This document shows, one piece after another, positions 2,574 to 27,411 of a DNA stretch of 35,370 nucleotides. The notes under the pieces were generated by a model that did not search any database, was not told the DNA's origin, and saw nothing but the letters and a program-made list of their open reading frames with translations. Source of the stretch: a virus. Taxonomy: Duplodnaviria; Heunggongvirae; Uroviricota; Caudoviricetes. The translations under genes and the position numbers were made by a program. Position 1 is the first letter of the stretch, and each line of letters starts with the position of its first letter. The stretch is from IMG/VR virus record IMGVR_UViG_2778261227_000014; one strand, 5' to 3'.

Positions 2574-2852
2574 ATGGCAAAAGTCCTGAACACACACGAA
2601 CAGGCAGACTTTGAGCGTTTAGCAGCGTTCTATCCCTACCGCGATGAGCATGGGTTACCAGTACTTGAAGAAAGCCTGAAAGATTACGCAAAGCGTACCA
2701 ACCAAGCTGTTAACACAGTGAAAAGACAGGCTGACAGAGGTTCAATTCCCATCAACCAAGATGAAAAGAACTCAAGACGCACAGTAAATCTCTTCGCTCT
2801 TTTCCTGAAAACAATCAGGAGCGCAGAAAAATACGTGCAGATGACAAAATAA
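2574..2852 (+). CDS. cox: Cox-like excisionase/early transcriptional regulator
   Basis: 92 aa; first gene transcribed away from the repressor. AKRTNQAVNTVKRQADRGSIPI parallels the HTH segment of P2 Cox (AKLIGKSTGAVRRMIDKGKLPVI, from memory). Confidence 0.6.
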   Translation: MAKVLNTHEQADFERLAAFYPYRDEHGLPVLEESLKDYAKRTNQAVNTVKRQADRGSIPINQDEKNSRRTVNLFALFLKTIRSAEKYVQMTK

Positions 2853-2866
2853 CGAGGTGTCATTTT

Positions 2867-3205
2867 ATGCTGAAGCAACGCCGTAATTTTCGTACCGGAA
2901 CAGAACGCCACGCTAACCGTTTCACTACCAGTGCATCACGCAGCAACATTCGCTACAGCCTGAGTGATACACACGCAACGCCGGATGGCTACCCAGTAAA
3001 ACAAATCGGCGAGCACGCCTGGCTGATTGAGAAAGCTGGAATCGTGATCCACAAATGCCCACGCAATCCGTTTACCGGAAACCGCATTTTTGCATTGAGC
3101 TGTGGCGACAATCAGTTCGGGCAGGATTTCACATTATACGAAGCACTTCGCACGGTTGATCGTCTGCTTCGCGGGCAAAGTTTTATTAAACAGGCTGATT
3201 TATAA
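2867..3205 (+). CDS. Hypothetical early protein
   Basis: 112-aa ORF with a GAGG upstream of the ATG, co-oriented in the early operon. Confidence 0.5.
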   Translation: MLKQRRNFRTGTERHANRFTTSASRSNIRYSLSDTHATPDGYPVKQIGEHAWLIEKAGIVIHKCPRNPFTGNRIFALSCGDNQFGQDFTLYEALRTVDRLLRGQSFIKQADL

Positions 3206-3215
3206 CAGGTGCTTT

Positions 3216-3530
3216 ATGACCAAAGACCATGCACAAGGTGTATTTATCCGTTTTATTGATTTTCGCGGTGAACTGTTATTACGTGCATCCGCTATTGACG
3301 GAGTGACTCCGGCGGGTAAAAACGGAGCCGACGAAGCCACTTACGTTTATCTGAACGGCACGCGCTGCTTGTGGAACTTCCGTACCAGACCGTACGAGAA
3401 ATCATTAGCGAAGCTGAAAAGGCACGCCATGTTAATGGCGATGAACCCTATATCGAAATTATTTGTATGGATTCAGAAGCTGAAATACAGAAAGCAGATT
3501 AAAGGGCGTTGTGATGGGCAAAGAATATAA
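3216..3530 (+). CDS. Hypothetical early protein
   Basis: ATG at 3216 with caggtg upstream; 104 aa; the track ORF 3102-3530 trimmed to the first ATG with an RBS. Confidence 0.45.
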   Translation: MTKDHAQGVFIRFIDFRGELLLRASAIDGVTPAGKNGADEATYVYLNGTRCLWNFRTRPYEKSLAKLKRHAMLMAMNPISKLFVWIQKLKYRKQIKGRCDGQRI

Positions 3531-3756
3531 AACTCTCATTAACAAAGCACTTGAGCGTTTTTATTTTCGCTTAAGTGCATCAGGCGCTCATGCTGAACGT
3601 GCGGCCCGTGACTCATTGACCAGAGCAATCCGAAGTCTGTATGACGTGGCTTTTTATGCTGATGATCTGGATGCACTTAACGAACTTTCCGAGCTGATCT
3701 GTGCCGCAGAATGCGGGGAACATATTGAACCGTATAAGCTGGGAAATATCGCATGA
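3514..3756 (+). CDS. Hypothetical early protein
   Basis: ORF in the early operon; GTG at 3511 and ATG at 3514 are both possible starts; overlaps the previous gene end. Confidence 0.45.
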   Translation: MGKEYKTLINKALERFYFRLSASGAHAERAARDSLTRAIRSLYDVAFYADDLDALNELSELICAAECGEHIEPYKLGNIA

Positions 3757-3890
3757 GTATATTTATCTCATGGCTTGTTCTGATTATTTCGGTGGTCTGC
3801 GCCATTGGGATTATGCGAATTATTAATTCAGTGAAAAAGATCGAGCGTTTTTCTCTGATGAATAACGATACAAATAAAGCATCAAATTAA
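3753..3890 (+). CDS. Small hydrophobic protein (45 aa), single predicted TM helix
   Basis: ATGA start/stop overlap with the upstream gene at 3753-3756; translation MSIFISWLVLIISVVCAIGIMRIINSVKK...; too short for the ORF track. Confidence 0.35.
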   Translation: MSIFISWLVLIISVVCAIGIMRIINSVKKIERFSLMNNDTNKASN

Positions 3891-3958
3891 ATAAGAAAAC
3901 GTGAAAACCATCCGTATTAACGGAGGTATTCGCACACGCAAATAACGGAGATACAAAA

Positions 3959-4369
3959 ATGCACGCAAAAGAAGAAGGTATCATCAGAGCACTGAAAGAA
4001 ATTTCAAAGACAGAAAACGAAGTAGCGAAAAAAGCCGTGGCAAATGCACATATGGACGTCGCAACCCACACACTGATAGTCGCAAGAGTCACGGCAGAAG
4101 CAGCCGAAATTATCGCAAAACAGGATGCTGAACTGGCGGTTCTCAGAACACAACCAGTCACCGGACTGGATTTGTCTAACACCGGACGCCTTATTTACAC
4201 AATTGGCTCGGAGCTACAGCGATACACCATTATCGCCGGATTACAGGATAAATACCTGATCACTCCTCACCCCATAAGGGAATCAGAAATTCTGACAAAT
4301 CTCCGCCTGATAGAACGCTCTCAAGCTGTATTCATTGATGACGCGCAACGTGCCGTATTTAACGCATAG
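3959..4369 (+). CDS. Hypothetical early protein
   Basis: 136-aa ORF, GGAG 8 nt upstream of the ATG. Confidence 0.55.
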   Translation: MHAKEEGIIRALKEISKTENEVAKKAVANAHMDVATHTLIVARVTAEAAEIIAKQDAELAVLRTQPVTGLDLSNTGRLIYTIGSELQRYTIIAGLQDKYLITPHPIRESEILTNLRLIERSQAVFIDDAQRAVFNA

Positions 4370-4392
4370 GGTTACTGGACAAAGGGGGCGCA

Positions 4393-4596
4393 ATGGCAAT
4401 TAAGCATTTTCCCGTCGTTCGCTTTACCTCCAGAGGGCGCGAATACGAGGTCGACGAACGCCTGATTACCACTATCGACAAACATCGTTCGGAAAAGGAT
4501 GCACACCACATCTACCTCACTGACGGCACTTACTTCTGCGCCACCAACGTGGCGCGAGTAAATCTTATCCGACAGGTACAGGAGCCACGCAGATGA
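4393..4596 (+). CDS. Hypothetical early protein
   Basis: 67-aa ORF, AAGGGGG upstream of the ATG, stop overlaps the next start (ATGA). Confidence 0.5.
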   Translation: MAIKHFPVVRFTSRGREYEVDERLITTIDKHRSEKDAHHIYLTDGTYFCATNVARVNLIRQVQEPRR

Positions 4597-4859
4597 CCAT
4601 TCTGGACTACATCGCTACTCATCCGGGGTGTAGCGGCGGAGAGATCGCCGCAGCACTGAATACCCCAACCACAGCCATTAATGCTGAGTTACGCCGACTT
4701 TGGCGCGGCGGCTTAGTCATCAGAACAAACCGCAGCACAGGTGGTCGCGCTCGCAAAACAGGAGGCCAGGCTTCTTACCACGTAAACCCGATGCCGTTCG
4801 GGTGTAGCAATCCACTTACTCACATGTTTAACCGGCTACTGAAGGAAGCCAGAGCATGA
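4593..4859 (+). CDS. Putative winged-helix DNA-binding protein
   Basis: 88 aa; LDYIATHPGCSGGEIAAALNTPTTAINAELRRLWRGGLV looks like a winged HTH; translationally coupled to the upstream gene. Confidence 0.5.
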   Translation: MTILDYIATHPGCSGGEIAAALNTPTTAINAELRRLWRGGLVIRTNRSTGGRARKTGGQASYHVNPMPFGCSNPLTHMFNRLLKEARA

Positions 4860-4924
4860 GCACCATCAACCACCAGGAATTACATCCATCATCATTTCCG
4901 AGATGCCAACAGGCTCTTCACAGT

Positions 4925-5392
4925 TCAGAAACTGCACAACCAGCAAATTAACCTTTCGGAGTAACGCAAATGTTCGCTGGCAGACAACCCAACAGATGCA
5001 CTCGCTTTGTTTTTTGCGGGCCTGACAAACGCTTTCATGTATGCGCTGTTCGTTTCTTCCAGATGCAGAATGCGCTCAATGAGGCGTTCAGTACTCATGA
5101 AATCCCTTTGCGTAATCAGACGAAGGTAGCTCTGTTTCTGCCAGCACGCCCATTCGGCAACGCACTCAAACTTACTGCAAAACCAGGAAAAAACAAAAAA
5201 CGCCAGCCCGCAAAGACTCATCAGGACGGGGAAACCTACGAGAAGAAAGGAGAATACCGCAGCAATCAGTGCCCCGGCGCGCAACACGGCAGCGGCTTTA
5301 TTGCTGAGTATGAAAACCATCTCTTCCAGCCAGTAGCTGTACCACAGATGGAAAAAAATCTTCTTGTCTGCTTGCTCCATAGCAACAGGCAT
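4925..5392 (-). CDS. Membrane protein (2 predicted TM helices plus C-terminal soluble domain), function unknown; antisense to the early operon
   Basis: ATG at 5392 with GGAGG 5-6 nt upstream on the - strand (the track start at 5398 is TTG). Hydrophobic stretches AAVLRAGALIAAVFSFLLVGFPVLM and LCGLAFFVFSWF. The overlapping + ORF 4970-6085 has non-protein-like composition. Confidence 0.55.
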   Translation of the reverse strand: MPVAMEQADKKIFFHLWYSYWLEEMVFILSNKAAAVLRAGALIAAVFSFLLVGFPVLMSLCGLAFFVFSWFCSKFECVAEWACWQKQSYLRLITQRDFMSTERLIERILHLEETNSAYMKAFVRPAKNKASASVGLSASEHLRYSERLICWLCSF

Positions 5393-5449
5393 AAACAACC
5401 TCCATTGTTAATAAACGCCGCTATCCTTCGGCGCATTCCATTTTTGCGC

Positions 5450-5485
5450 CGCGATTATACATACTTCAGCACGCAACACAAAAAC
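5450..5485 (-). promoter_or_regulatory. Candidate sigma70 promoter for the antisense membrane-protein gene
   Basis: On the - strand TTGCGT ... TGTATATAAT (perfect TATAAT, + coordinates 5454-5459, with upstream TG); spacing to the -35-like hexamer is short, so extended -10 usage is assumed. Confidence 0.35.
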
Positions 5486-5547
5486 CGCTTGCCAGCGCTC
5501 GTTGAGTCGGGTTACATTTCCGCTGCACCTCATAAAACGGGTGCCGG

Positions 5548-5733
5548 GATTCTCAACCCGCTGACTACACACGCGCACAACCGCGCCAGCGGTTTTTTTG
5601 TGCGTACTGTATTGCCACGTCTTATTCGCGTCAGAATTATGGCGGGGCGTACGGGGCCGACTTCGGTCGGGCCGGGATCGTGTGTAGCCGGTGTTGAGAA
5701 CCCCGTACGTCTCGCCACCCCGAGATTCTCAAC
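5548..5733. repeat. Three copies of the GATTCTCAAC motif (two direct, one inverted) around a GC-rich stem-loop region
   Basis: gattctcaac at 5548-5557 and 5724-5733; inverted copy gttgagaa at 5693-5700; cgtacgggg (5648-5656) complementary to ccccgtacg (5701-5709), enclosing the ccgac-ttcg-gtcgg hairpin at 5657-5670. Confidence 0.5.
5578..5599 (+). terminator. Candidate intrinsic terminator inside the early region
   Basis: aaccgc-gcca-gcggtt hairpin followed by T7 (ggtttttttg) on the + strand. Confidence 0.45.
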
Positions 5734-5778
5734 TCTGGATGGTGAGTTTTCAAAACTTACTATACACGAGGCCACGTC

Positions 5779-6009
5779 ATGGCAAACCGCAAGCAACAGC
5801 GCGCCCGCGCTGAGCGTATTCACATCCGCAGCGAAATCAACCGCAGACTTTTTCGCGCAACACGCGTCGCGCAAATCATGCACATCAATATGTTGCATGA
5901 GCGCAGCCACGCACTATCAAACATTTATTCCGCCTCTGTTTTCAGCTATCTGGCGGATGATCTGCACGAGCTTCAACAGCTCATCCAGCAGCAAAACAAA
6001 CTCCATTAA
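5779..6009 (+). CDS. Small basic protein, hypothetical
   Basis: 76-aa ORF, GAGG upstream of the ATG; N-terminus MANRKQQRARAERIHIRSEINRRLF is arginine-rich. Confidence 0.5.
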   Translation: MANRKQQRARAERIHIRSEINRRLFRATRVAQIMHINMLHERSHALSNIYSASVFSYLADDLHELQQLIQQQNKLH

Positions 6010-6081
6010 TTCCTGTTCCGGGCCTTTCCTGCACCTTGCGGCGGGAGGCCTTCGCACATCTGTAACAAGAGGATTGCCGCA

Positions 6082-6447
6082 ATGATTCTCGCCAACGACT
6101 TTCTTGAATACCTGCTCAACACAGAGCGTGATCTTGCCGCTCGCGTGCGTGATCGTTATGACATGTACCTGAAATCCCTGCCTGTACTGCAGCTCGCTGA
6201 CGGAAAGATTGTTATTGATGGTCGCTACATGATTGACAGCCACGAGGGAAATTACAGGCTTTACCGCATTGAAGGTGGCACCCCGTCCGTTATTGGCATT
6301 TACCAGCGCCCATCCTCTGCAATCGTCGATGTGATTGCCGACAGCATCCGCATCACACATCGCCATGCCGACACAGAAGACACCGTGCTGGAAATTCAGC
6401 GGCTGGCTACAGTCTGCCGCGACACCCTGAATGGCATGACGAAGTAA
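6082..6447 (+). CDS. Hypothetical protein immediately upstream of the replication gene
   Basis: 121-aa ORF, AAGAGGA 7 nt upstream of the ATG; stop 6 nt before the A start. Confidence 0.55.
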   Translation: MILANDFLEYLLNTERDLAARVRDRYDMYLKSLPVLQLADGKIVIDGRYMIDSHEGNYRLYRIEGGTPSVIGIYQRPSSAIVDVIADSIRITHRHADTEDTVLEIQRLATVCRDTLNGMTK

Positions 6448-6453
6448 ATCACT

Positions 6454-9276
6454 ATGACGGCAGAGTACATCAGGGACTGGCAACAACCGCGCCACGCAGT
6501 GGGGTGTGAAGGAACGGGGATCCCCGCTCCTGAATCCGCGCTTTCCTCCTGGCTGGATGCCTACCGGGCTGAGAACGAGCGCCGCCAGGAAATGGCTGAT
6601 GCGGCGTTCTCCGCCACACCGCTGGGCAACCTGATTAATAAAAGCCTGGACGCACAGGAAAAACAGGACAAAACCATCACACTGGCAGGAGACGCCAGAA
6701 AACAGGCACGCGGCGCGGTGGATGAAGCCATGGCCTCGCTGCGCCTGCTGCCGTCCTATCTGCGCGATCCGCTTATTCGCCACCTCTCCTTCCTGCGCAA
6801 AAAACAGGAAGCCGATCGCCGGAAAGGCAAAAAGAGCTGGCAGGCGGAACGCTATGCACGCGGACCCCTGCGCAAAATATTCGAACGTCTGGATAGCACT
6901 GACGGACGCTGGCTGACACCGGGTTATCGCTCCCTTGCCGGACGCGAACGCCTGGACGATTTGCTTTACCTGCCGCAGCTCAACAAACACCAGATACAGA
7001 CGCTGGCCACCATGACGGCGGCGATGTTCAGCAGCACCTTCGAAAAACTCTGCGATGGCTTTGGCGCGACCGATGGCGAGCTGACCATGGATGTAACCCT
7101 GAAGGCGTATCAGATGCTGGCCCGCATGGCGTTACACCTGCACGCCATGCCTCCACATTATGACGCACTGACGACAGACAAAGACCGGAGGAACGAACCG
7201 GACACGGAGCTGCTGCCGGGCGCAATCCTTCGCCTGACCTGTGCGGAATGGTGGAAACGCAAACTGTGGCTGTTACGTTGCGAGTGGAGAGAAGAACAAC
7301 TCCGCGCCGCCTGTCTGGTTTCCAGAAAAACATCACCCTATCTGAGCCAGGACGCGTTAAGCGAGTTTCGCGCACAGCGCGAGAAAACACGCGATTTCCT
7401 GAAAAGTTTCATGCTGGAAAATGAAGACGGGTTCACGATTGATCTCGAGACAGTGTATTACGCGGGAGTAAGTAACCCGGTTCACCGTAAGGCAGAAATG
7501 ATGGCCACCATGAAGGGGCTGGAACTTCTGGCCGAAGCCCGTGGCGACAAAGCGGTGTTTCTGACTGTCACCTGCCCGTCAAAATACCACGCCACAACAG
7601 AGAACGGTCATCCGAATCCCAAATGGAACGGGGCCACCATGCGCGACTCCAGCGATTACCTGGTTAACACGTTTTTTGCAGCGGTCCGCAAGAAACTGAA
7701 CCGCAACGGCCTGCGCTGGTATGGCATCCGCACGGTGGAGCCTCACCATGACGGCACCGTGCACTGGCATATGATGGTCTTTGCTCATCCGGAAGAAATC
7801 GACACCATTGTGTCCCACACCCGCGATATTGCCATTCAGGAAGATCGTCACGAGCTGGGTGATGATATTACCCCACGCTTTAAGGCAGAGTACGTCGACG
7901 GTTCGAAAGGTACGCCGACCAGCTACATCGCCACCTACATCGGAAAGAACCTGGACAGCCGCGCCGTGGGTGGCATTGACCCGAAAACAAGCAAGCCACG
8001 CGTTGATCACGAAACCGGAAAATCAATGGCCGAGAGCGTGGAACGCGCCATCGGCTGGGCGCGCCTTCACCGCGTCCGCCAGTTCCAGTTCTTTGGTATC
8101 CCCTCCCGTCAGGTATGGCGTGAACTCCGCCGCCTTGCCAGTCAGATGGCCCGCAACCCGGAAGGTCCACAACGTCTGGAAAATGACGCAATGGATGCGG
8201 TACTCGCTGCCGCTGATGCCGGGTGTTTTGCCACCTACATTGAGAAACAGGGTGGCGTACTTGTTCCACGCAAGGATTACCTGATTCGCACCGCCTACGA
8301 CCTCGCAGAAGAGCTGAACGATTACGGCGAGCAAAGCGTACAGATTTACGGGATCTGGTCGCCACAAATCGGGGAATCTTCCCGCGTGTGCACGCACCCG
8401 GATAACTGGAAGCTGGTAAGACGTAAACCGGAAGCGGAAGACAGCGCCCGCGAAAATGGTTTTGACCTTCAGGGCGGCCCTGCCGCCCCTTGGACTCGTG
8501 GCAATAACTGTCCCCGTGTACAGGAAACGGACAACAACGGGACAGAACAGCCGGAAGAACGGCCAGCACCGTGGCCGCAGCTCCCTGACGGCGTTGAAGT
8601 GAACGAATGGATGCGCTCACTGAAACGGCACGAACGCCGGGCGCTGATGCGTTCGCTTCGTGACAAACAGGCAAAAAACAGCAGTGATGAAATGCAGAGC
8701 TGGACACAGAGCCGCAAACAGCAGCGGCCTTTGCCTGATAACCACGAATTACTCGCTAAAGAATGGCGGGAGTCTGCTGAATCTCTCGGCCTGCATATCG
8801 GTGAACAGCAGATGCAGCACCTGTTACGGGGCGGCAGTCTGTACGTTGACGGCAGCATCATTGCACCGCAGGGATTTGAAATTGTACGCAAACCGGATAC
8901 CCGACCGGACAGCCGGATCACGCAGCTCTGGCAGCGCCTGAGCCGTAACCACGGCGTAAGCAGCACGGAGATCCGCCATAACCCGGTCGCCAGCTATCTG
9001 GAACAGCTGGGGGCATCAGACCCCGAAGCCGCCGCACGCCTGGCATCCACACTTCAGCAAGACCAGAACACCATGAAAACACCCGTTACCGTGCTTTCTG
9101 ACATGCTGCGCGCCATCCGCGACGCAGAGCACGCACAGAGAATCAGTGAAACCACTGAACGCGCCCGCCGCAAAGCAGACCTGCTGCGGGGTGGCCTGAC
9201 CATTGGAAACAAAAAACAGACAGAAACGGGATTCACAAATCCCGTAAATGAGCAAAAAACGCGCCGCGATATATGA
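6454..9276 (+). CDS. A: Rolling-circle replication initiator, P2 gpA-like endonuclease
   Basis: 940 aa. HUH-type metal motif GTVHWHMMVFAH and paired active-site tyrosines YIATYIGKN (Y-x3-Y), as in P2 A / phiX174 A-type initiators; position after the early genes. Overlapping - strand ORFs (7880-8707 and others) are treated as high-GC artefacts. Confidence 0.85.
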   Translation: MTAEYIRDWQQPRHAVGCEGTGIPAPESALSSWLDAYRAENERRQEMADAAFSATPLGNLINKSLDAQEKQDKTITLAGDARKQARGAVDEAMASLRLLPSYLRDPLIRHLSFLRKKQEADRRKGKKSWQAERYARGPLRKIFERLDSTDGRWLTPGYRSLAGRERLDDLLYLPQLNKHQIQTLATMTAAMFSSTFEKLCDGFGATDGELTMDVTLKAYQMLARMALHLHAMPPHYDALTTDKDRRNEPDTELLPGAILRLTCAEWWKRKLWLLRCEWREEQLRAACLVSRKTSPYLSQDALSEFRAQREKTRDFLKSFMLENEDGFTIDLETVYYAGVSNPVHRKAEMMATMKGLELLAEARGDKAVFLTVTCPSKYHATTENGHPNPKWNGATMRDSSDYLVNTFFAAVRKKLNRNGLRWYGIRTVEPHHDGTVHWHMMVFAHPEEIDTIVSHTRDIAIQEDRHELGDDITPRFKAEYVDGSKGTPTSYIATYIGKNLDSRAVGGIDPKTSKPRVDHETGKSMAESVERAIGWARLHRVRQFQFFGIPSRQVWRELRRLASQMARNPEGPQRLENDAMDAVLAAADAGCFATYIEKQGGVLVPRKDYLIRTAYDLAEELNDYGEQSVQIYGIWSPQIGESSRVCTHPDNWKLVRRKPEAEDSARENGFDLQGGPAAPWTRGNNCPRVQETDNNGTEQPEERPAPWPQLPDGVEVNEWMRSLKRHERRALMRSLRDKQAKNSSDEMQSWTQSRKQQRPLPDNHELLAKEWRESAESLGLHIGEQQMQHLLRGGSLYVDGSIIAPQGFEIVRKPDTRPDSRITQLWQRLSRNHGVSSTEIRHNPVASYLEQLGASDPEAAARLASTLQQDQNTMKTPVTVLSDMLRAIRDAEHAQRISETTERARRKADLLRGGLTIGNKKQTETGFTNPVNEQKTRRDI

Positions 9277-9322
9277 AGCGCGCATAAAACAGGCAAAAAC
9301 GGGATTTCAGAATCCCGTAAAC
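9224..9322. repeat. Two related 8-bp-arm palindromes flanking the A stop codon
   Basis: acgggatt-caca-aatcccgt within 9224-9248 and acgggatt-tcag-aatcccgt within 9297-9322; between them gcgccgcgatatatgaagcgcgc. Confidence 0.5.
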
Positions 9323-9352
9323 GATTAATTAATCAACATAAGGAAAAGCGAC

Positions 9353-10312
9353 ATGAAAATTTGTATCGATGACGGCTCCACCAACATCAAGCTGGCATGG
9401 ACTGAGAACGGCGAACGCCGCAACGCCATCAGCCCGAACAGCTTCAAGTCGGAATGGTCTGCGCCGTTCGGTGGCACGCAGCCCGCGAACTACATGCTTG
9501 ATGGCGTGCGCTATGGTTTTGATCCGGTCAGCGATCGCTTTGTCCAGACGACCGACACGCAATACCAGTACAGCGATGTGAATGTCATTGCCATTCATCA
9601 CGCGCTGGTCAAATCAGGCATCACACCACAGGAAGTGGATGTGGTTGTCACCCTGCCACTGAGCGAATATTTCGACACAAACGCACAGCCGGACATGGCC
9701 AACATCAACCGCAAAAAAGCAAACGTCATGCGTCCGGTGGCGTACCAGAACGGAAAAGCATTCACTATCCGTAACGTACGGGTTATGCCTGAATCCATTC
9801 CGGCTGGTTTTAAAGCACTGGCTGACATGAGTCCGTTTGAATCCCTGCTGATTGTGGATTTAGGCGGAACCACGCTGGATGTGGCAAAGGTTCAGGGACA
9901 ACTGGCGGGTATCAGCCAGGTGTTTTGCGATCCACACGTAGGCGTTTCCCTGATGGCCGATGCCGTACTGTCGGTGATGGCCACTAACGGTATGCGCACC
10001 AGTCACCACATCGCCAATACCATTATCGAACATCGCCATGATGAAGCCTGGCTGCGCCAGCACATCCACAATGACGCGCATTACGCCAGCCTGATGGCGG
10101 TTATTCGTGAAAAGGAAGAAACACTGAAACAACGCGTGATCCGCGCGCTGGCGGTTTTTTCGGGTTACGGGCGGGTGATGGTTGTCGGTGGCGGGGCGGA
10201 GATTGTGGCACCCGCTATCCGCGAAGCCTGCGGAGTTAATGCGACTTTCATCGCGGACGGGGTGCCACAATTTGCTCTGGTTAATGGGCTGTACGCAATG
10301 AACAAGGAGTAA
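9353..10312 (+). CDS. parM: ParM/StbA-like actin-type segregation ATPase
   Basis: 319 aa; N-terminal MKICIDDGSTNIKLAW closely matches plasmid R1 ParM (MLVFIDDGSTNIKLQW, from memory); further shared blocks YSDVNVIAIHHAL, VMPESIPAG, LLIVDLGGTTLD, GVSL, FSGY, VMVVGGGAEI, LVNGLY. AGGA RBS 8 nt upstream. Confidence 0.8.
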   Translation: MKICIDDGSTNIKLAWTENGERRNAISPNSFKSEWSAPFGGTQPANYMLDGVRYGFDPVSDRFVQTTDTQYQYSDVNVIAIHHALVKSGITPQEVDVVVTLPLSEYFDTNAQPDMANINRKKANVMRPVAYQNGKAFTIRNVRVMPESIPAGFKALADMSPFESLLIVDLGGTTLDVAKVQGQLAGISQVFCDPHVGVSLMADAVLSVMATNGMRTSHHIANTIIEHRHDEAWLRQHIHNDAHYASLMAVIREKEETLKQRVIRALAVFSGYGRVMVVGGGAEIVAPAIREACGVNATFIADGVPQFALVNGLYAMNKE

Positions 10313-10316
10313 ACCA

Positions 10317-10628
10317 ATGACGACACCAACCAGAAGAATAAGTTTCTATCTGAAGCCAGCTGCCGTCAAGAACGAAGGAGAAGCATGCGCCTGGCTGGAC
10401 AGCCTTACACCAGAAGCCCGCAAAAGCGGCCAACGCGTGGCTTTTCTGGCCGGGCTGGCACTTCTGAAGACGAATCCGGCAGAGGCTTACCGACTGGCCG
10501 CATGGGCTGATGATGAGATGTTACCTGTGACACAAATCAGCTCAAAAAAGTTTGAAGCACAGTCTGCACCAGTGGCTAAGATAACCAGCCAGATGGCTGG
10601 GAATATCCGGGCGTTATTTCCTGAGTAA
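10317..10628 (+). CDS. parR: ParR/StbB-like DNA-binding adaptor protein
   Basis: 103 aa directly downstream of the parM-like gene; ISFYLKP, AFLAGLALLKTNPAEAY and IRALFPE parallel R1 ParR (IAFKLNP, AALTAGLALYRQDP, LRSLFPKE, from memory); AGGAG RBS. Confidence 0.65.
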   Translation: MTTPTRRISFYLKPAAVKNEGEACAWLDSLTPEARKSGQRVAFLAGLALLKTNPAEAYRLAAWADDEMLPVTQISSKKFEAQSAPVAKITSQMAGNIRALFPE

Positions 10629-10642
10629 AAGCATCTGCGCGA

Positions 10643-10684
10643 AAAATGCTCACGTTTATAGAGAAAATGCTCACGTTTATAGAG
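10643..10684. repeat. Perfect tandem duplication of a 21-bp unit just downstream of the parR-like gene
   Basis: aaaatgctcacgtttatagag at 10643-10663 repeated at 10664-10684. Confidence 0.7.
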
Positions 10685-10777
10685 ACAGTATCATTCCATT
10701 TGGCACACTTACTTCAATAATCGATCTGTTAAACAAATAGATTGTCTATTATCTATCGATTAAAACGATCAATTATC

Positions 10778-10806
10778 TTGACAGTAATGTGCCTTTTTGT
10801 AAGATC
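10778..10806 (+). promoter_or_regulatory. Candidate sigma70 promoter
   Basis: Perfect TTGACA at 10778-10783, 16-17 bp spacer, TAAGAT at 10800-10805; points toward the 11014 gene. Confidence 0.4.
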
Positions 10807-10856
10807 GTTCGCATTGTGAGCGACAAGATAATTGCGCGGCATTGTCCATGCAAAAC

Positions 10857-10882
10857 GCCCCAATAGCAGCAACTATTGGGGC
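10857..10882 (+). other. 10-bp-stem hairpin (possible 5'UTR structure or binding site)
   Basis: gccccaatag-cagcaa-ctattggggc, perfect inverted repeat. Confidence 0.4.
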
Positions 10883-11013
10883 GTAAAACTCGGTCGGACT
10901 CACTTAACCTGATATGCGTGCCTTCCGAAGTAAATCAAAATGTGCGTCGTATATTTTATTGCTTACACGCACCTCTGTAAAGGCACGCATATTTTTCCTA
11001 TGAGGTAAATAAA

Positions 11014-11283
11014 GTGCGGGCTAAAACAGGTATTTGCAAGAACCCTCATCGTTATAATCCAACATTTCTGTCTCTCCCTGAATATCAAGGACAAGAAGGT
11101 CGGCACAAATGCGCTGCCTGTGCTTTTGAGCTAGGCATAAAAGATGCGCTTGAAGGACGCGCTATGGCTCAGAATGATTTAGTTTTAGCTAACATTCCGT
11201 TTAGCCAGGCTGGAACTGTAAGGCACAGAGATGCCTATGAAGCATATGTTCGTGGTTGGCGATTAATACACAGCAACAATTGA
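11014..11283 (+). CDS. Small hypothetical protein with Cys/His cluster
   Basis: 89 aa from GTG at 11014 with GAGG 8 nt upstream; CKNPHRYNP...HKCAACAF; flanked by its own promoter-like region and a downstream terminator. Confidence 0.45.
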   Translation: MRAKTGICKNPHRYNPTFLSLPEYQGQEGRHKCAACAFELGIKDALEGRAMAQNDLVLANIPFSQAGTVRHRDAYEAYVRGWRLIHSNN

Positions 11284-11291
11284 TACTTTTG

Positions 11292-11316
11292 AAGCGCCGA
11301 TAAGGCGCTTTTTTTG
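11292..11316 (+). terminator. Rho-independent terminator
   Basis: agcgcc-gataa-ggcgct hairpin followed by T7 directly after the 11283 stop. Confidence 0.7.
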
Positions 11317-11707
11317 TTTGCACGATAGTGCACAAGTTTGCACAATTTTTTTGAACGACTTTTTGTACTTCCGGCCCGCGTGGTGGCTGGATCCGTCAAG
11401 GATCCGTACGTGCACAAAAAAACGCGTTTTTTCTGCGCGCAGGTGACGGGGGAACAGCCCGCGTTTCAGGGGGTAAATAGCATTCCCTGAACGATGTCGC
11501 AGAGATACAACAGAATGGCTGTATTTCTCACGCTGAGCGTGAAAAAGACGTGAGGGCTTTTGATTTAGGTAAGGCCGTCAAAATCGCACTGAGACGGCGA
11601 GAACATGCAGTCAACGCGGTGGGATTGCGTAAGAGTCTGACTGTCGATGATGGCAATCAGCAGAAAAGCATCGTGAAATTATCTGACTGATACAGGAGCT
11701 GGAGAGT

Positions 11708-11732
11708 CGGGGCATAAATTTTTTATGCCCCG
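11708..11732. other. Hairpin adjacent to the portal gene stop
   Basis: cggggcata-aattttt-tatgccccg at 11708-11732, 27 bp beyond the Q stop; no clean T-run on either side. Confidence 0.35.
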
Positions 11733-11758
11733 GCGAAGCAGCAGACAAGCGAAGCGCG

Positions 11759-12805
11759 TCAGGATGTGGGCTGGGTGTCTAACAGTGCGTAAGGGTTAAA
11801 GCGGATCACCTCTTCGCCAAGCCAGTCATTGATGTGCTTCATGGCCTCCATGACAGGCATCAGCTCGTTAATTGCGTAAACCCGCGCGGCCTTCTCCACA
11901 TCGCCAAACGCACTTTTTTCGCCCGGCATCGCCCCCATCAGTTGCGGCGGAACGCGGTGCGCAGCCAGCACATCATCACGGGATGCCGCCTTAACATTCA
12001 TGAACTCATCCTTTGCGGTGATCTGCTGGAACGGCAAAATTTGCACCCCCTCTTTGCCCCCGTTGGGCGCATGAATGAGCACGTTTTTAAATGCACCACC
12101 ACCACGCGCACCCTGTAGCGTTTCCTTCAGGGAGTCCATGCTTTCGCGGTTTACCTGCGCTGCACCGATGTAGATGATGCACCCGGCGTGGGAGCCGTTG
12201 TCGTAATACAGTTTTCTGAACATGTCCGCCGAATGAGACAGGCTGGCCGAGAGTAATGCGCCGAGATATTCCGGCATGCCGTAGATTTCCTGGTTAATGT
12301 CAGGATTCATCAGGTGGCACACTTTGCCAGGGCGAAACTGAAACGCGTCCTTGCCATCCTGCACATACCACCATGATTCAAGATCGCTTCCGCGTCGCAT
12401 GTATTTCGCCAGGGCGTGCCGTAATTTAAGTGGTTCGCCGAGCATATTGCTTCGAAGCTCAAGGAATGCGTTACCGAACACAAACCAGTCCAGCGCCAGC
12501 GCCGAGAAATCCTGCCGGGAAAGCAGCGGATGCGGAATATAGCAGCCGAGCAATACATTACGCTTAAAGTAAAGCGCAGACTGATGCCAGGACGTTTGCC
12601 GGGCAGCTCTTGCCAGACCGTACCAGTCCACCGGGGTTTCATACCACCGACCGTTATCAGCACAGTACATATTGTCCAGCAGGTCATGCCCGGTCAGGCG
12701 GTAAGGACCATCAAATGTGAATGCACTGAGCGACGATTCTTTCCTGAGCGCATCAGCGAGATCAATGCGTGAACTCATGCGCACTTTTTTATTTTTTCTG
12801 CTCAT
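11759..12805 (-). CDS. Q: Portal protein, P2 gpQ-like
   Basis: 348 aa, ATG at 12805 overlapping the P stop (ATGA); size and position match P2 Q, leftward and adjacent to terminase. Confidence 0.85.
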   Translation of the reverse strand: MSRKNKKVRMSSRIDLADALRKESSLSAFTFDGPYRLTGHDLLDNMYCADNGRWYETPVDWYGLARAARQTSWHQSALYFKRNVLLGCYIPHPLLSRQDFSALALDWFVFGNAFLELRSNMLGEPLKLRHALAKYMRRGSDLESWWYVQDGKDAFQFRPGKVCHLMNPDINQEIYGMPEYLGALLSASLSHSADMFRKLYYDNGSHAGCIIYIGAAQVNRESMDSLKETLQGARGGGAFKNVLIHAPNGGKEGVQILPFQQITAKDEFMNVKAASRDDVLAAHRVPPQLMGAMPGEKSAFGDVEKAARVYAINELMPVMEAMKHINDWLGEEVIRFNPYALLDTQPTS

Positions 12806-24948: not shown

Positions 24949-25547
24949 TGGCATTCAGAATGAGTGAACAACCACGAACCATAAAAATTTATAATCTGCT
25001 GGTCGGAACCAATGAATTTATTGGTGAAGGTGATGCATACATTCCACCTCATACAGGTCTACCTGCAAATAGTACTGATATTGCTCCGCCAGATATTCCA
25101 GCTGGCTTCGTGGCTATTTTCAACAGTGATGAGGCATCGTGGCATCTTGTTGAAGACCATCGGGGTAAAACAGTTTATGACGTGGCATCAGGGGACGCGT
25201 TATTTATTTCTGAACTCGGCTCATTACCGGAAAATGTCACTTGGTTATCCCCGGAAGGGGAGTTTCAGAAGTGGAACGGCACAACGTGGGTGAAAGATGC
25301 AGAAGCAGAAAAAGTGTTCCGGATACGGGAGGCGGAAGAAACAAAAAACAGCCTCATGCAGGTAGCCAGTGAGCATATTTCGCCACTTCAAGATGCCGTA
25401 GATTTGAATATTGCAACAGAGGAAGAAACATCGTTACTGGTGGCATGGAAGAAGTATCGAGTGCTGCTGAACCGTGTTGATACATCAAGAGCACCGGATA
25501 TTGAGTGGCCAGCTTCCCCAGTGGAATCAAGGAGTAAACAAGCATAA
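24948..25547 (+). CDS. G: Tail fibre assembly chaperone, P2 gpG-like
   Basis: 199 aa immediately after H (TAATG overlap). Confidence 0.8.
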
Positions 25548-25641
25548 AGGCTTTCATTTCAAACCATTGTAGTACAGTTTTTTGTATAGTACCCTGCTCA
25601 TTTCGGATGACATGTGTGATTTGGAATTTCAGGGTACCATT

Positions 25642-26820
25642 ATGAATGTTATTTCATCATTAAAACAGCTTAACAGACAGCGAAATATTAAAACAAAAAA
25701 GATAAAGACGAAGGCCAGACTGGCATTTCTAAAAATGCGATACAGAAGGAAAACATCATTACAGCCGAATAGTTATAAAACAGTGTGCATTTTCATGCAC
25801 ATGCAAGCCATTGGTGACGGCATCGTTACCTCAGGGTTTATTAAACAACTTCAAAAATCCGGTATGGTGGTATATGTGATAGCACCTTCAAGAGTATCAT
25901 TCCTCTTTACTGATATTGTTGGCGTGGATGCCTTTATATCTTACGAGAAAAATAAATTTAACGAACTAAAAGCAAAGATAAAAAAACTGAATGTAGATCT
26001 TGTTGTTGACTTCTCAAATTTTGATAACACAGCGATAACCAGATTGCAAACACTACATTTACTTAGACCTAAACACTCTATCTGTTTTAATCATCCTGCC
26101 GTAACTATTTTTGATACAAATATAATCGATAATCGTTCCATTCACACATCTGAAAGAATGAAAAAAGTTTTATCTTTACTAAAGATAAAAAATAATAATT
26201 ATGCTGCAGCACTTAATTTTGACAACAAAACATATGAACCAGCAAATATTGTTGCAAATGAATTCAGGAAGAAAAACAAAAAATTAGTTATATTTAACCC
26301 TTATGGCTCTCAGAATAGCAGAACCTTATCTGATGAACAGATAAACAAAGTACTAGCTTACCTTAATAACCTTAAGGGATATCACACAATAGTTTTTAAT
26401 ATGGGAAAACAGATTAATCACAATGGATTGGATAATGTGTCTCTATCTCCATTTTCTGATGCCGGATGTTCATTTGCATTGGTTCGCCATGCTGATTTTG
26501 TTATAACTGTAGATACTGCCATTGTACATTTAGCCAGTGCATTAAACATTAGACAATACTGTATATATAATAACAGAATGCATGAAGGAAAATTCGAAAA
26601 TAATATTGTGTGGGGGCCAAACAGCAAATTAGCGACTCAACTCACCACATCCGAACATCTAAGGTCTGAAGGGGGCGACGATATGCATAAATTCGACATA
26701 ATGATCTTAATTAATGCTATCAAACAAGATTTGACAAACGATATACCGAATTACCACTCGGATTTAGGTTGTAAAAATAGATCCAGAAACCCAGAATTAG
26801 AAAGTAGCAATTCTTTATAA
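25642..26820 (+). CDS. Glycosyltransferase family 9-like (heptosyltransferase-like) moron; start uncertain (ATG 25612 or 25642; the track start 25582 is TTG)
   Basis: Strongly AT-rich versus flanking phage genes; N-terminal VCIFMHMQAIGDGIVTSGFIKQL resembles the GT9 ILVIRLxAIGDxxxTxP box, and C-terminal FVITVDTAIVHLASALNIRQY resembles the GT9 NDSGPMHLAAAL box. Sits at the P2 Z/fun position. Confidence 0.55.
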   Translation: MNVISSLKQLNRQRNIKTKKIKTKARLAFLKMRYRRKTSLQPNSYKTVCIFMHMQAIGDGIVTSGFIKQLQKSGMVVYVIAPSRVSFLFTDIVGVDAFISYEKNKFNELKAKIKKLNVDLVVDFSNFDNTAITRLQTLHLLRPKHSICFNHPAVTIFDTNIIDNRSIHTSERMKKVLSLLKIKNNNYAAALNFDNKTYEPANIVANEFRKKNKKLVIFNPYGSQNSRTLSDEQINKVLAYLNNLKGYHTIVFNMGKQINHNGLDNVSLSPFSDAGCSFALVRHADFVITVDTAIVHLASALNIRQYCIYNNRMHEGKFENNIVWGPNSKLATQLTTSEHLRSEGGDDMHKFDIMILINAIKQDLTNDIPNYHSDLGCKNRSRNPELESSNSL

Positions 26821-26916
26821 AGTAGAAACCTCAACAGTTTTATCAGGACCTACGATATATTATATAACAACAAGCCGCCCATTACCCAATATGAGGGTAT
26901 TAGCGGCAATGTAAAA

Positions 26917-27411
26917 TCAAAACAGTCCTTTAACTGAACTGGCCGCGCTGTTAAGGGATGATGTGACCTTATCTTTGAAGCCGGACAGCATATCACTGAA
27001 CGATGAGGATTGCAGACGCTCCCGCAAATCCTCATCACAGCGTTCAAGGGTCAGTGAAAATTCTATCTTTTTCGCCTTACCGTAGCGATCAAACTCGGAA
27101 CGGGTCGTATTCGTTTCAGTCAGTACATACATGCCGTAAATCTGCCCGACACCATCAATCAGAGGCCAGGGGCGTCCTGTATATGCCTGCGTGGTCAGCA
27201 ACGAAAGCGACACTTCGCCACCTGTAATTTCAGGATAAAGCACGCCGGAAAGCACGATGCGATCATCACCTGCGCCGATATACTGCCAGCTTGCTGAACG
27301 GTTAACGCGTTCATTTTTCACATGCCGCCAGCTTTTGTTTTGCTGTAACTGCTGATGCGGCAATGTGCGCAGCTCAAAAACAAACATGCCGTAGATCATC
27401 ATCATGGCCAT
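26917..27411 (-). CDS. U: Tail protein, P2 gpU-like
   Basis: 164 aa; WRH, LSGVLYPEITGG and RPWPLIDG.G.IYGM.V blocks match P2 U. Confidence 0.85.
   Translation of the reverse strand: MAMMMIYGMFVFELRTLPHQQLQQNKSWRHVKNERVNRSASWQYIGAGDDRIVLSGVLYPEITGGEVSLSLLTTQAYTGRPWPLIDGVGQIYGMYVLTETNTTRSEFDRYGKAKKIEFSLTLERCDEDLRERLQSSSFSDMLSGFKDKVTSSLNSAASSVKGLF

Follow-up and report, generated by a model that had tools for sequence, protein, structure and literature searches.

The parMR genes of P88-like prophages: a conserved R1-type segregation module next to the phage replication gene

Background

SrpMRC is a strictly conserved actin-type partition locus of the chromosomally integrated SXT/R391 ICEs (Carraro et al. 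2015, PMC4489591). It is expressed only together with the excision and transfer functions, before excision. The system binds to repeats located 5' of srpM and stabilises the excised form, a low-copy circle whose replication depends on a rolling-circle relaxase (PMC4489591). The AlpAC/alpS system of the Corynebacterium glutamicum prophage CGP3 consists of an actin-like ATPase and a DNA-binding adaptor, with sites upstream of the operon; its genes are switched on early, the system links circular phage DNA to actin-like filaments, and excised phage DNA does not replicate efficiently without it (Donovan et al. 2015, PMC4446434).

For P2-like phages, an analysis of the gpA-gpQ locus across E. coli described this region as a defence/moron hotspot and reported that about a quarter of these phages carry a putative partition system, perhaps permitting plasmid maintenance (Rousset et al. 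2022). The partition remark was made in passing, without experiments. The module is listed as a putative fitness gene in the paper on phage phiSM, its genes are not mentioned in the P88 paper, and a literature search, with most subscription-journal papers outside its scope, found no functional study of it. In the RefSeq record of P88 and all other Xuanwuvirus records the genes are already annotated ('plasmid segregation protein ParM', 'partition protein'), PGAP labels in about 1,300 E. coli chromosomes read ParM and 'plasmid partitioning/stability family protein', and the GenBank record of phage D6 notes similarity to 'phage P88 StbA protein'. parMR is, thus, already known as a fixed feature of the P88-like branch of P2-like prophages, present in about a quarter of E. 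coli genomes. The first-pass annotation of the locus had assumed that ParMR was not reported in P2-like phages; this is contradicted by the public annotation and by Rousset et al. (2022), and novelty cannot be claimed for a module that is annotated in public records and in print with a plasmid-maintenance hypothesis. As a discovery it therefore carries limited weight, and the remaining interest is why common integrated prophages conserve it.

Here the locus is described from one such genome and its relatives. The reading favoured, to which about even confidence is given, is that parMR is a working type II (ParMRC-like) segregation module of the P88-like replication/early region and would act on the free phage circle.

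Genome context and gene order

The window, meaning the whole stretch of DNA analysed, is the 35,370-nucleotide IMG/VR virus record IMGVR_UViG_2778261227_000014. It represents a complete genome of the P2-like type and encodes a tyrosine integrase, an HTH repressor, gpA, gpD and ogr in addition to P2-type capsid, portal and terminase proteins. Its gene A is 96.6% and its parMR about 95% identical to those of phage P88, with equal gene order, and the ogr/hok end, 95% identical to P88, proved to be conserved backbone in a search of a phage collection. Nucleotide similarity and synteny with P88 assign the window to Xuanwuvirus (P88-like Peduoviridae).

Gene A, parM and parR are located on the same strand, with 77 bp between the gene A stop codon and parM and 4 bp between parM and parR (Table 1), and the P2-type portal and terminase genes are on the opposite strand. 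This order confirms the position given in the first-pass annotation, between gene A and the portal gene of an integrative P2-like genome, and its assignment of the two ORFs to ParM and ParR of the R1 type is borne out by the Pfam and structure matches given in the next section. The Shine-Dalgarno-like AAGGA before parM is kept in all aligned relatives, including the Hafnia type. Within gene A, a stretch of about 50 bp (approximately 8470-8519), situated about 0.8 kb upstream of the palindromes described below, is conserved across P2-like phages of Klebsiella, Salmonella and Yersinia, and some records annotate a nicking site here.

Table 1. Features of the parMR locus and its surroundings (positions in the window)
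Feature	Coordinates	Strand	Description	Remarks
gene A	6454..9276	+	940 aa, long P88-type replication endonuclease	Pfam Phage_GPA 2.2e-131
palindrome 1	9226..9245	.	ACGGGATT-CACA-AATCCCGT	overlaps the 3' end of the gene A reading frame; candidate ParR site, parM-distal half of a minimal parC
palindrome 2	9299..9318	.	ACGGGATT-TCAG-AATCCCGT	lies in the 77 bp between gene A and parM; candidate ParR site, parM-proximal half of a minimal parC
Shine-Dalgarno-like AAGGA	9340..9344	+	8 nt 5' of the parM ATG	read from the sequence
parM (ORF1)	9353..10312	+	319 aa	predicted actin-fold partition ATPase, R1/StbA family
parR (ORF2)	10317..10628	+	103 aa	predicted compact ribbon-helix-helix adaptor
portal gene	11759-12805	-		downstream of parMR

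Identity and constraint of ParM and ParR

The product of ORF1 matched over its full length the Pfam families StbA_N (6.9e-82) and ParM C-terminal domain (6.2e-69), and it aligned with the solved structure of R1 ParM (1mwk) over residues 2-316 (E=1.3e-92, 46.7% identity). The motifs DDGSTNIK, MPESIPAG, DLGGTTLD and GGGAE (phosphate-1, catalytic, phosphate-2 and adenosine, respectively) are the same in R1 ParM, and in PHROGs both ORF1 and ORF2 belong to 'partition protein' families. By its sequence, ORF1 encodes a full-length R1-family ParM, an actin-fold ATPase with intact nucleotide-binding motifs.

ORF2 matched the family Plasmid_stab_B (PF10784, 9.8e-24). As a single query it found no solved structure; a profile of phage and plasmid ParRs matched the solved ParR of pB171 (2jd3, 'StbB protein') with E=8.5e-11 over the ribbon-helix-helix domain. 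The AlphaFold2 model, computed for the monomer of an obligate dimer, was of low confidence (pLDDT 55). The phage protein has 103 residues, compared with 112-140 in plasmid and D6 homologues, and alignment with these ParRs indicates that about 30-40 central residues are missing, with the ribbon-helix-helix strand and the C-terminal tip kept. Divergence from the plasmid proteins is so large that tblastn with the phage ParR found no plasmid ParR. These features identify ORF2, directly downstream of parM, as a compact ParR.

Among 86 loci, 44 distinct ParR alleles were present, the allele of the window occurring in six. The N-terminal strand RRISFYLKP (MTTPTRRISFYLKP) is essentially invariant across alleles and common to plasmid ParRs. 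The C-terminal tip NIxxxFP is essentially invariant in the phage alleles as well, with the counterparts NIKNLFPDDE and NAENMFGDD in plasmid ParRs; in R1 ParR, the C-terminal tip is the ParM-binding peptide. Over residues 18-64, the alleles divide into two families that share about 55% identity, and the linker (residues 65-92) is hypervariable. The selection estimates follow the same pattern, with dN/dS of 0.03-0.08 at both ends of parR (0.03 in the C-terminal tip) and about 0.5 in the linker. ParM, with its 319 residues, is intact in all 86 loci examined, and the dN/dS of parM among chromosomal copies is 0.067. Taken together, these values indicate that the module is under strong purifying selection, which is reported as new here.

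Candidate centromere and transcription signals

The 20-bp palindrome ACGGGATT-N4-AATCCCGT is present upstream of parM at two sites 73 bp apart, inside a 42-nt direct repeat. Its core, GGGATT-N4-AATCCC, occurs twice in 35 kb (0.10 expected), at these two sites only. Their positions relative to the parM start codon, -127 and -54, are the same in 83 of 84 loci. In the Hafnia-type relative, the most diverged one recovered (ParM 94% identical), the flanks have drifted, whereas both cores and the 73-bp spacing are kept. In palindrome 2, the variability of the arms is about ten-fold lower than that of the 4-nt spacer (0.024 vs 0.23). In a column-by-column comparison of close relatives, conservation of the arms did not exceed that of the flanking DNA; information on palindrome conservation comes only from the Hafnia type and from the contrast between arms and spacer at site 2. 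The two ParR allele families did not co-vary with palindrome variants, both being found with the same variants; this comparison has no power because the DNA-reading strand of ParR is invariant.

A simple consensus scan, which would miss weak or activator-dependent promoters, predicted neither a sigma-70-like promoter nor a plus-strand terminator in the gene A-parM gap, and scored both hairpins as terminator-like on the minus strand. No iteron array was found upstream of parM, and no other repeat array upstream or downstream besides a local 21-bp duplication. This perfect tandem repeat (2x21 bp, 10643-10684), situated just after parR in the hypervariable cargo junction, was considered as a centromere and rejected because most relatives lack it and some have only a single copy of the unit.

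The palindrome pair occupies the place that parC has in characterised systems. The twin palindrome is the likely minimal centromere (parC), which is reported as new here; a centromere function is uncertain, since there are only two candidate ParR sites as opposed to the multi-iteron arrays elsewhere. The assignment is kept provisional because the pair is smaller than plasmid and D6 parC, has no predicted promoter and forms hairpins that are terminator-like on the minus strand.

Alternatively, ParMR might act as in the favoured reading, with ParR bound elsewhere and the palindromes serving as RNA or terminator elements. This explanation, which concerns the palindromes only, is possible but not probable. 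Its variants are an mRNA hairpin tuning the expression of parMR versus A, and a block to antisense transcription. The minus-strand terminator scores speak for it, together with the strong RNA folding of the region (z = -5.6), the arm variant AATCCTGT with GCGGGATT, which preserves G-U pairing on the plus strand, and the number of sites, two, unlike known parC arrays. Plus-strand U-tracts are, however, absent 3' of the hairpins, Rfam gave no match in the region, and the site-1 variant GGGACT has no compensating change. An alternative repeat array is also missing, the 21-bp repeat being a local duplication.

Integrated and extrachromosomal states

Complete E. coli genomes carry parMR in 1,303 of 5,426 cases and the long gene A in 1,320, and 1,449 of the 1,451 parMR copies are on chromosomes; IMG/VR contains 242 further copies. 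The closest chromosomal relative of the window (99.8% identical over parMR) is integrated beside pdxB. An attP junction query, built from the circular 34,461-bp P88-like 'plasmid' record NZ_CP148288.1, was searched in all complete E. coli genomes. The contiguous junction was found in none of the 442 genomes with the pdxB-type integrase/att, with the caveat that a circular record starting on the junction is reported as two places, which applies to NZ_CP148288.1 itself. Among the matches listed, the alignments end at one point of the query (about position 502), beside pdxB wherever the flank is annotated. Up to three parMR copies with the same ParR reading strand are present in one genome. Because nearly all copies are chromosomal, no contiguous attP was found and co-resident copies share the ParR strand, stable plasmid carriage of P88-like phages is at best rare. 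By these location data, the carrier of the module is also not a low-copy extrachromosomal replicon, whose inheritance a type II system would be expected to stabilise.

Two small records deposited as plasmids were considered as evidence of an episome and rejected. NZ_CP148288.1 is truly circular, but the record begins exactly at the att breakpoint, which would be expected if it had been assembled as a bubble from a subpopulation of excised copies; NZ_CP049283.1 is linear and represents a piece of a prophage riddled with IS1.

The suggestion already in print (Rousset et al. 2022), and raised also in the first-pass annotation, is that ParMRC allows the phage to persist as a low-copy episome for many generations, for example when attB is occupied or absent. 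Such a facultative plasmid prophage would be consistent with the deposition of one circular P88-like genome as a plasmid, with the Hok/Gef toxin gene of the phage, a typical plasmid function of post-segregational killing, and with the nearest phage ParM being that of a true phage-plasmid, D6. It is unlikely in view of the chromosomal location of nearly all copies, the failure to find the attP junction and the nature of the two small records. Moreover, no theta-type plasmid replicon was seen in the window, only the rolling-circle initiator A, and incompatibility would be expected between up to three co-resident plasmids with the same ParR strand and motif. Stable episomal maintenance, as proposed in the first-pass annotation, therefore finds no support in the location data.

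A further possibility, speculative and quite unlikely, is that a stripped-down ParMRC (a ParR of 103 aa and a palindromic centromere of two sites that extends into the end of the replication gene) is mechanistically coupled to rolling-circle replication starting at the ori close by, the very common P88-like prophages of E. coli being facultative phage-plasmids or carrier-state elements under conditions that finished assemblies miss. If true, the stripped-down ParMRC and the hok-like gene would recreate both stability loci of R1 on an integrative phage.

Distribution, linkage to gene A and age

Megablast against 50,697 phage records recovered the region at 92-97% identity in P88, 520873, 503458, P884B11, Citrobacter phiSM, PhiR44_2, Chuche, 569R5 and 705R2, which represent the genus Xuanwuvirus and its relatives. 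According to tblastn, this ParM is encoded in 14 phage records, and the long P88-type gene A (at least 80% of it) is present in precisely these 14; beyond them, an R1-family ParM was found only in the P1-like phage-plasmid D6 (48% identity). Phage 500465-2, taken up as a control with the same late genes and a different replication module, was uninformative, its record being mis-delimited (late genes and host flank). Apart from strays in Cronobacter and Hafnia, the ParR clade is nearly confined to Escherichia and Shigella.

None of the true plasmid ParMs in the plasmid collection (at least 5,000 records) reaches 60% identity to the phage ParM. Six records with at least 95% identity are prophages in mis-assigned or mega-records and one circular phage genome, and no ParM of intermediate identity was found in this collection. 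This identity gap between the phage clade and the plasmid ParMs indicates that the phage ParM forms a discrete, old clade. The GC contents of parM (0.545) and parR (0.526) are like that of the phage backbone, compared with 0.449 in the adjacent cargo and 0.44-0.49 in plasmid parM genes.

The variable region begins right after the parR stop codon, with 39 different downstream arrangements. Since parMR is invariant next to gene A and divergence is found only past the parR stop, the module is not hotspot cargo, and the hypervariable hotspot starts only after parR, which is reported as new here. Its description in the first-pass annotation as cargo of an accessory hotspot has to be revised accordingly, and the novelty proposed there is set aside by an observation that the annotation itself had named as decisive, namely that the module is a common core feature of the phage group, ParM and the long gene A being found in the same phage records. 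No PADLOC defence model matched parMR, and given also its invariance the module does not belong to the anti-phage defence systems of the P2 gpA-gpQ hotspot.

The same data bear on the idea that parMR is a moron expressed from the prophage and directed at other DNA or at the host, for example by destabilising incoming ParMRC plasmids and phage-plasmids or keeping them out, or by raising fitness in a general way. Location in the gpA-gpQ defence/moron hotspot and the listing as a putative fitness gene in the phiSM paper would fit, but such a role is very unlikely: parMR is fixed and backbone-like in GC, the hotspot starts past parR, PADLOC gave no match and no promoter of its own was predicted. 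Cross-reaction with plasmids is also unlikely because tblastn finds no plasmid ParR and the plasmid parC iterons examined are unlike the palindrome.

A decaying, now functionless relic of old plasmid-phage recombination, which the seemingly superfluous nature of partition in an integrated element might suggest, is effectively refuted by the selection data, since parM is intact in every locus examined and both parM and the ParR ends are constrained; composition is also fully ameliorated, and the capture is old, with no intermediates in the plasmid collection, yet the genes are preserved.

Proposed role

The replication of P2 proceeds by the rolling-circle mechanism from an ori within gene A, and its products are monomeric circles, the substrate of packaging. 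In the favoured reading of parMR as a segregation module of the free phage circle, its role must be transient because the copies are almost always integrated. It would act either after infection and before integration, or after excision during the rolling-circle production of monomeric circles. parM and parR, as distal genes of the early operon, are probably transcribed by read-through from gene A. ParR dimers may then bind the twin palindromes on either side of the gene A stop codon, at a distance of about 0.8 kb from the probable ori, and the conserved C-terminal tip of ParR might capture ParM filaments, following the R1 precedent. ATP-driven polymerisation of ParM would separate the phage circles, with the outcome that fewer elements are lost at division and/or genomes are positioned so that they replicate and are packaged efficiently. 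While the phage is integrated, the module is probably not expressed and is passed on passively.

The position of parMR fixed beside gene A, with the one-to-one co-occurrence with the long gene A and the backbone-like GC, is in favour of this model. The intact proteins with conserved catalytic motifs and ParR ends, the strong purifying selection, the gap between gene A and parM with neither a predicted promoter nor a plus-strand terminator, and the palindrome pair unique in the genome also speak for it. Against it, lytic replication yields many copies, and the need for active partition is not obvious. Among the options raised in the first-pass annotation, stabilisation of replicative or extrachromosomal intermediates is the best supported, although by analogy only.

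In about a quarter of E. coli strains, an integrated P2-like prophage retains an actin-based segregation machine of plasmid type, on which purifying selection is strong. P88-like phages can be induced and are amenable to genetics.

Comparison with known systems

The closest system, parMR (StbA/StbB) of P88 and other Xuanwuvirus (Peduoviridae) phages and prophages, is one and the same module, with 95-99% identity in ParM and with equal order, spacings and upstream palindromes. The window differs only in the parR allele (linker) and in the cargo after parR.

Like ParMRC (parA/stb) of R1 and related IncF/IncK plasmids, the locus has parM followed by parR, with repeats upstream of parM. The ParM proteins of R1 and the window share 47% identity and the same nucleotide-binding motifs, whereas the host is a low-copy plasmid in the one case and an integrative phage in the other, and the GC content of R1-type ParM genes is 0.44-0.47 versus 0.545 in the window. 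The main difference concerns the putative centromere. Plasmid parC is an iteron array of at least 150 bp enclosing the promoter, with roughly ten iterons in R1; the window has two candidate ParR sites, the 20-bp palindromes 73 bp apart, one of which lies in gene A, and a promoter is not predicted. Much larger regions, multi-iteron, AT-rich and 260-400 bp long, precede parM in those plasmid and D6 loci that were examined.

StbA/StbB of the P1-like D6 has a ParM 48% identical to that of the window and a likewise short ParR (112 aa). The prophage of D6 is a true plasmid, and the region preceding its parM is 266 bp long and contains iterons, whereas phages of the P88 type are integrative.

The SrpMRC and AlpAC systems differ more in their proteins. 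SrpM is distant from R1 ParM and SrpR has no recognisable ParR domain, whereas the window proteins are clear R1-family members; SrpMRC belongs to an ICE and is experimentally supported, whereas the module considered here belongs to a phage and is described from its sequence. AlpAC represents another actin-like family, has the adaptor gene first and is found in another host phylum. By analogy with these two systems, transient partition or positioning of the excised or infecting circle is the best reading of parMR in P88-like phages, and it would extend the precedent of SrpMRC and AlpAC, in which partition machinery serves a short extrachromosomal phase, to a major phage family.

The probable origin region and gene A

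Gene A, which encodes the replication endonuclease directly upstream of parM, contains a stretch of about 50 bp (~8470-8519) that is 85-91% identical to P2-like phages of Klebsiella, Salmonella and Yersinia and to Fels-2, and outside this stretch the gene A sequences of these phages could not be aligned with that of the window. This stretch is probably the nick site of the ori, since several records label it 'nicking at origin of replication'. The twin 20-bp palindromes proposed as ParR sites (9226-9245 and 9299-9318) are located ~0.8 kb downstream of it. Only residues 179-503 of the 940-aa gene A product (6454-9276) belong to the GPA domain, and the first palindrome falls within the final codons of the long C-terminal extension; the DNA at that place is thus constrained both as protein-coding sequence and as a putative cis-acting element.

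Two RNA matches (isrK and the C4 antisense RNA) were found just upstream of an ORF (6082-6447) that is followed by gene A. These matches, together with their position, suggest that this P2-like phage carries an antirepressor or derepression module under antisense control, similar to that of P1.

Variable segments

The stretch that separates parR from the portal gene is the true variable hotspot, occurring in 39 different arrangements among relatives. For its 89-aa ORF, no PADLOC match was obtained. The perfect tandem repeat directly 3' of parR is a recent local duplication within the cargo junction, because the 21-bp unit is present in one copy in some relatives and missing from most. The second P2 moron position is in the interval from the tail-fibre to the tail-sheath genes, where a very low-GC (0.34) insert (25500-27000) adjoins the IS009 RNA match.

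Features of the window outside parMR
Feature	Position	Strand	Remarks
isrK	5525-5599	+	Rfam, gathering-level, 61.8 bits
C4 antisense RNA, P1/P7 immI type	5635-5722	+	Rfam, gathering-level, 76.8 bits
Low-GC cargo segment, parR to portal gene	10629-11758		GC 0.449
Tandem duplication, 2x21 bp	10643-10684		AAAATGCTCACGTTTATAGAG
Promoter-like site, cargo segment	10778-10805
89-aa ORF, cargo segment	11014-11283		PHROG 3941, no function assigned there
Strong terminator, cargo segment	11291-11311
IS009 RNA	25291-25489		Rfam, 187.7 bits
GT9-like glycosyltransferase ORF	25582-26820		within the low-GC insert
Hok/Gef-family toxin ORF, 46 aa	35230-35370	+	Pfam PF01848, E=4e-7

Related records and plasmid stability loci

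NZ_CP148288.1, deposited as an E. coli plasmid, contains a complete circular P88-like phage genome of 34,461 bp (int, C, cox, A, parMR, late genes and hok), and the record starts at the att breakpoint. A contig of GCA_008711365.1 carries a degraded P88-like prophage (2697-6312) with gene A in fragments and an IS directly 3' of parR. Its parM is intact and 98.8% identical, and in its parR an internal segment is frameshifted, with the frame regained afterwards.

The Hok/Gef-family ORF, labelled 'MokW-like host killing' in the records of the relatives P88, 520873 and P884B11, has its stop codon at the exact end of the window. Homologues of both classical stability loci of plasmid R1, parMRC and hok/sok, are present in this phage, as parMR and the Hok/Gef-family ORF.
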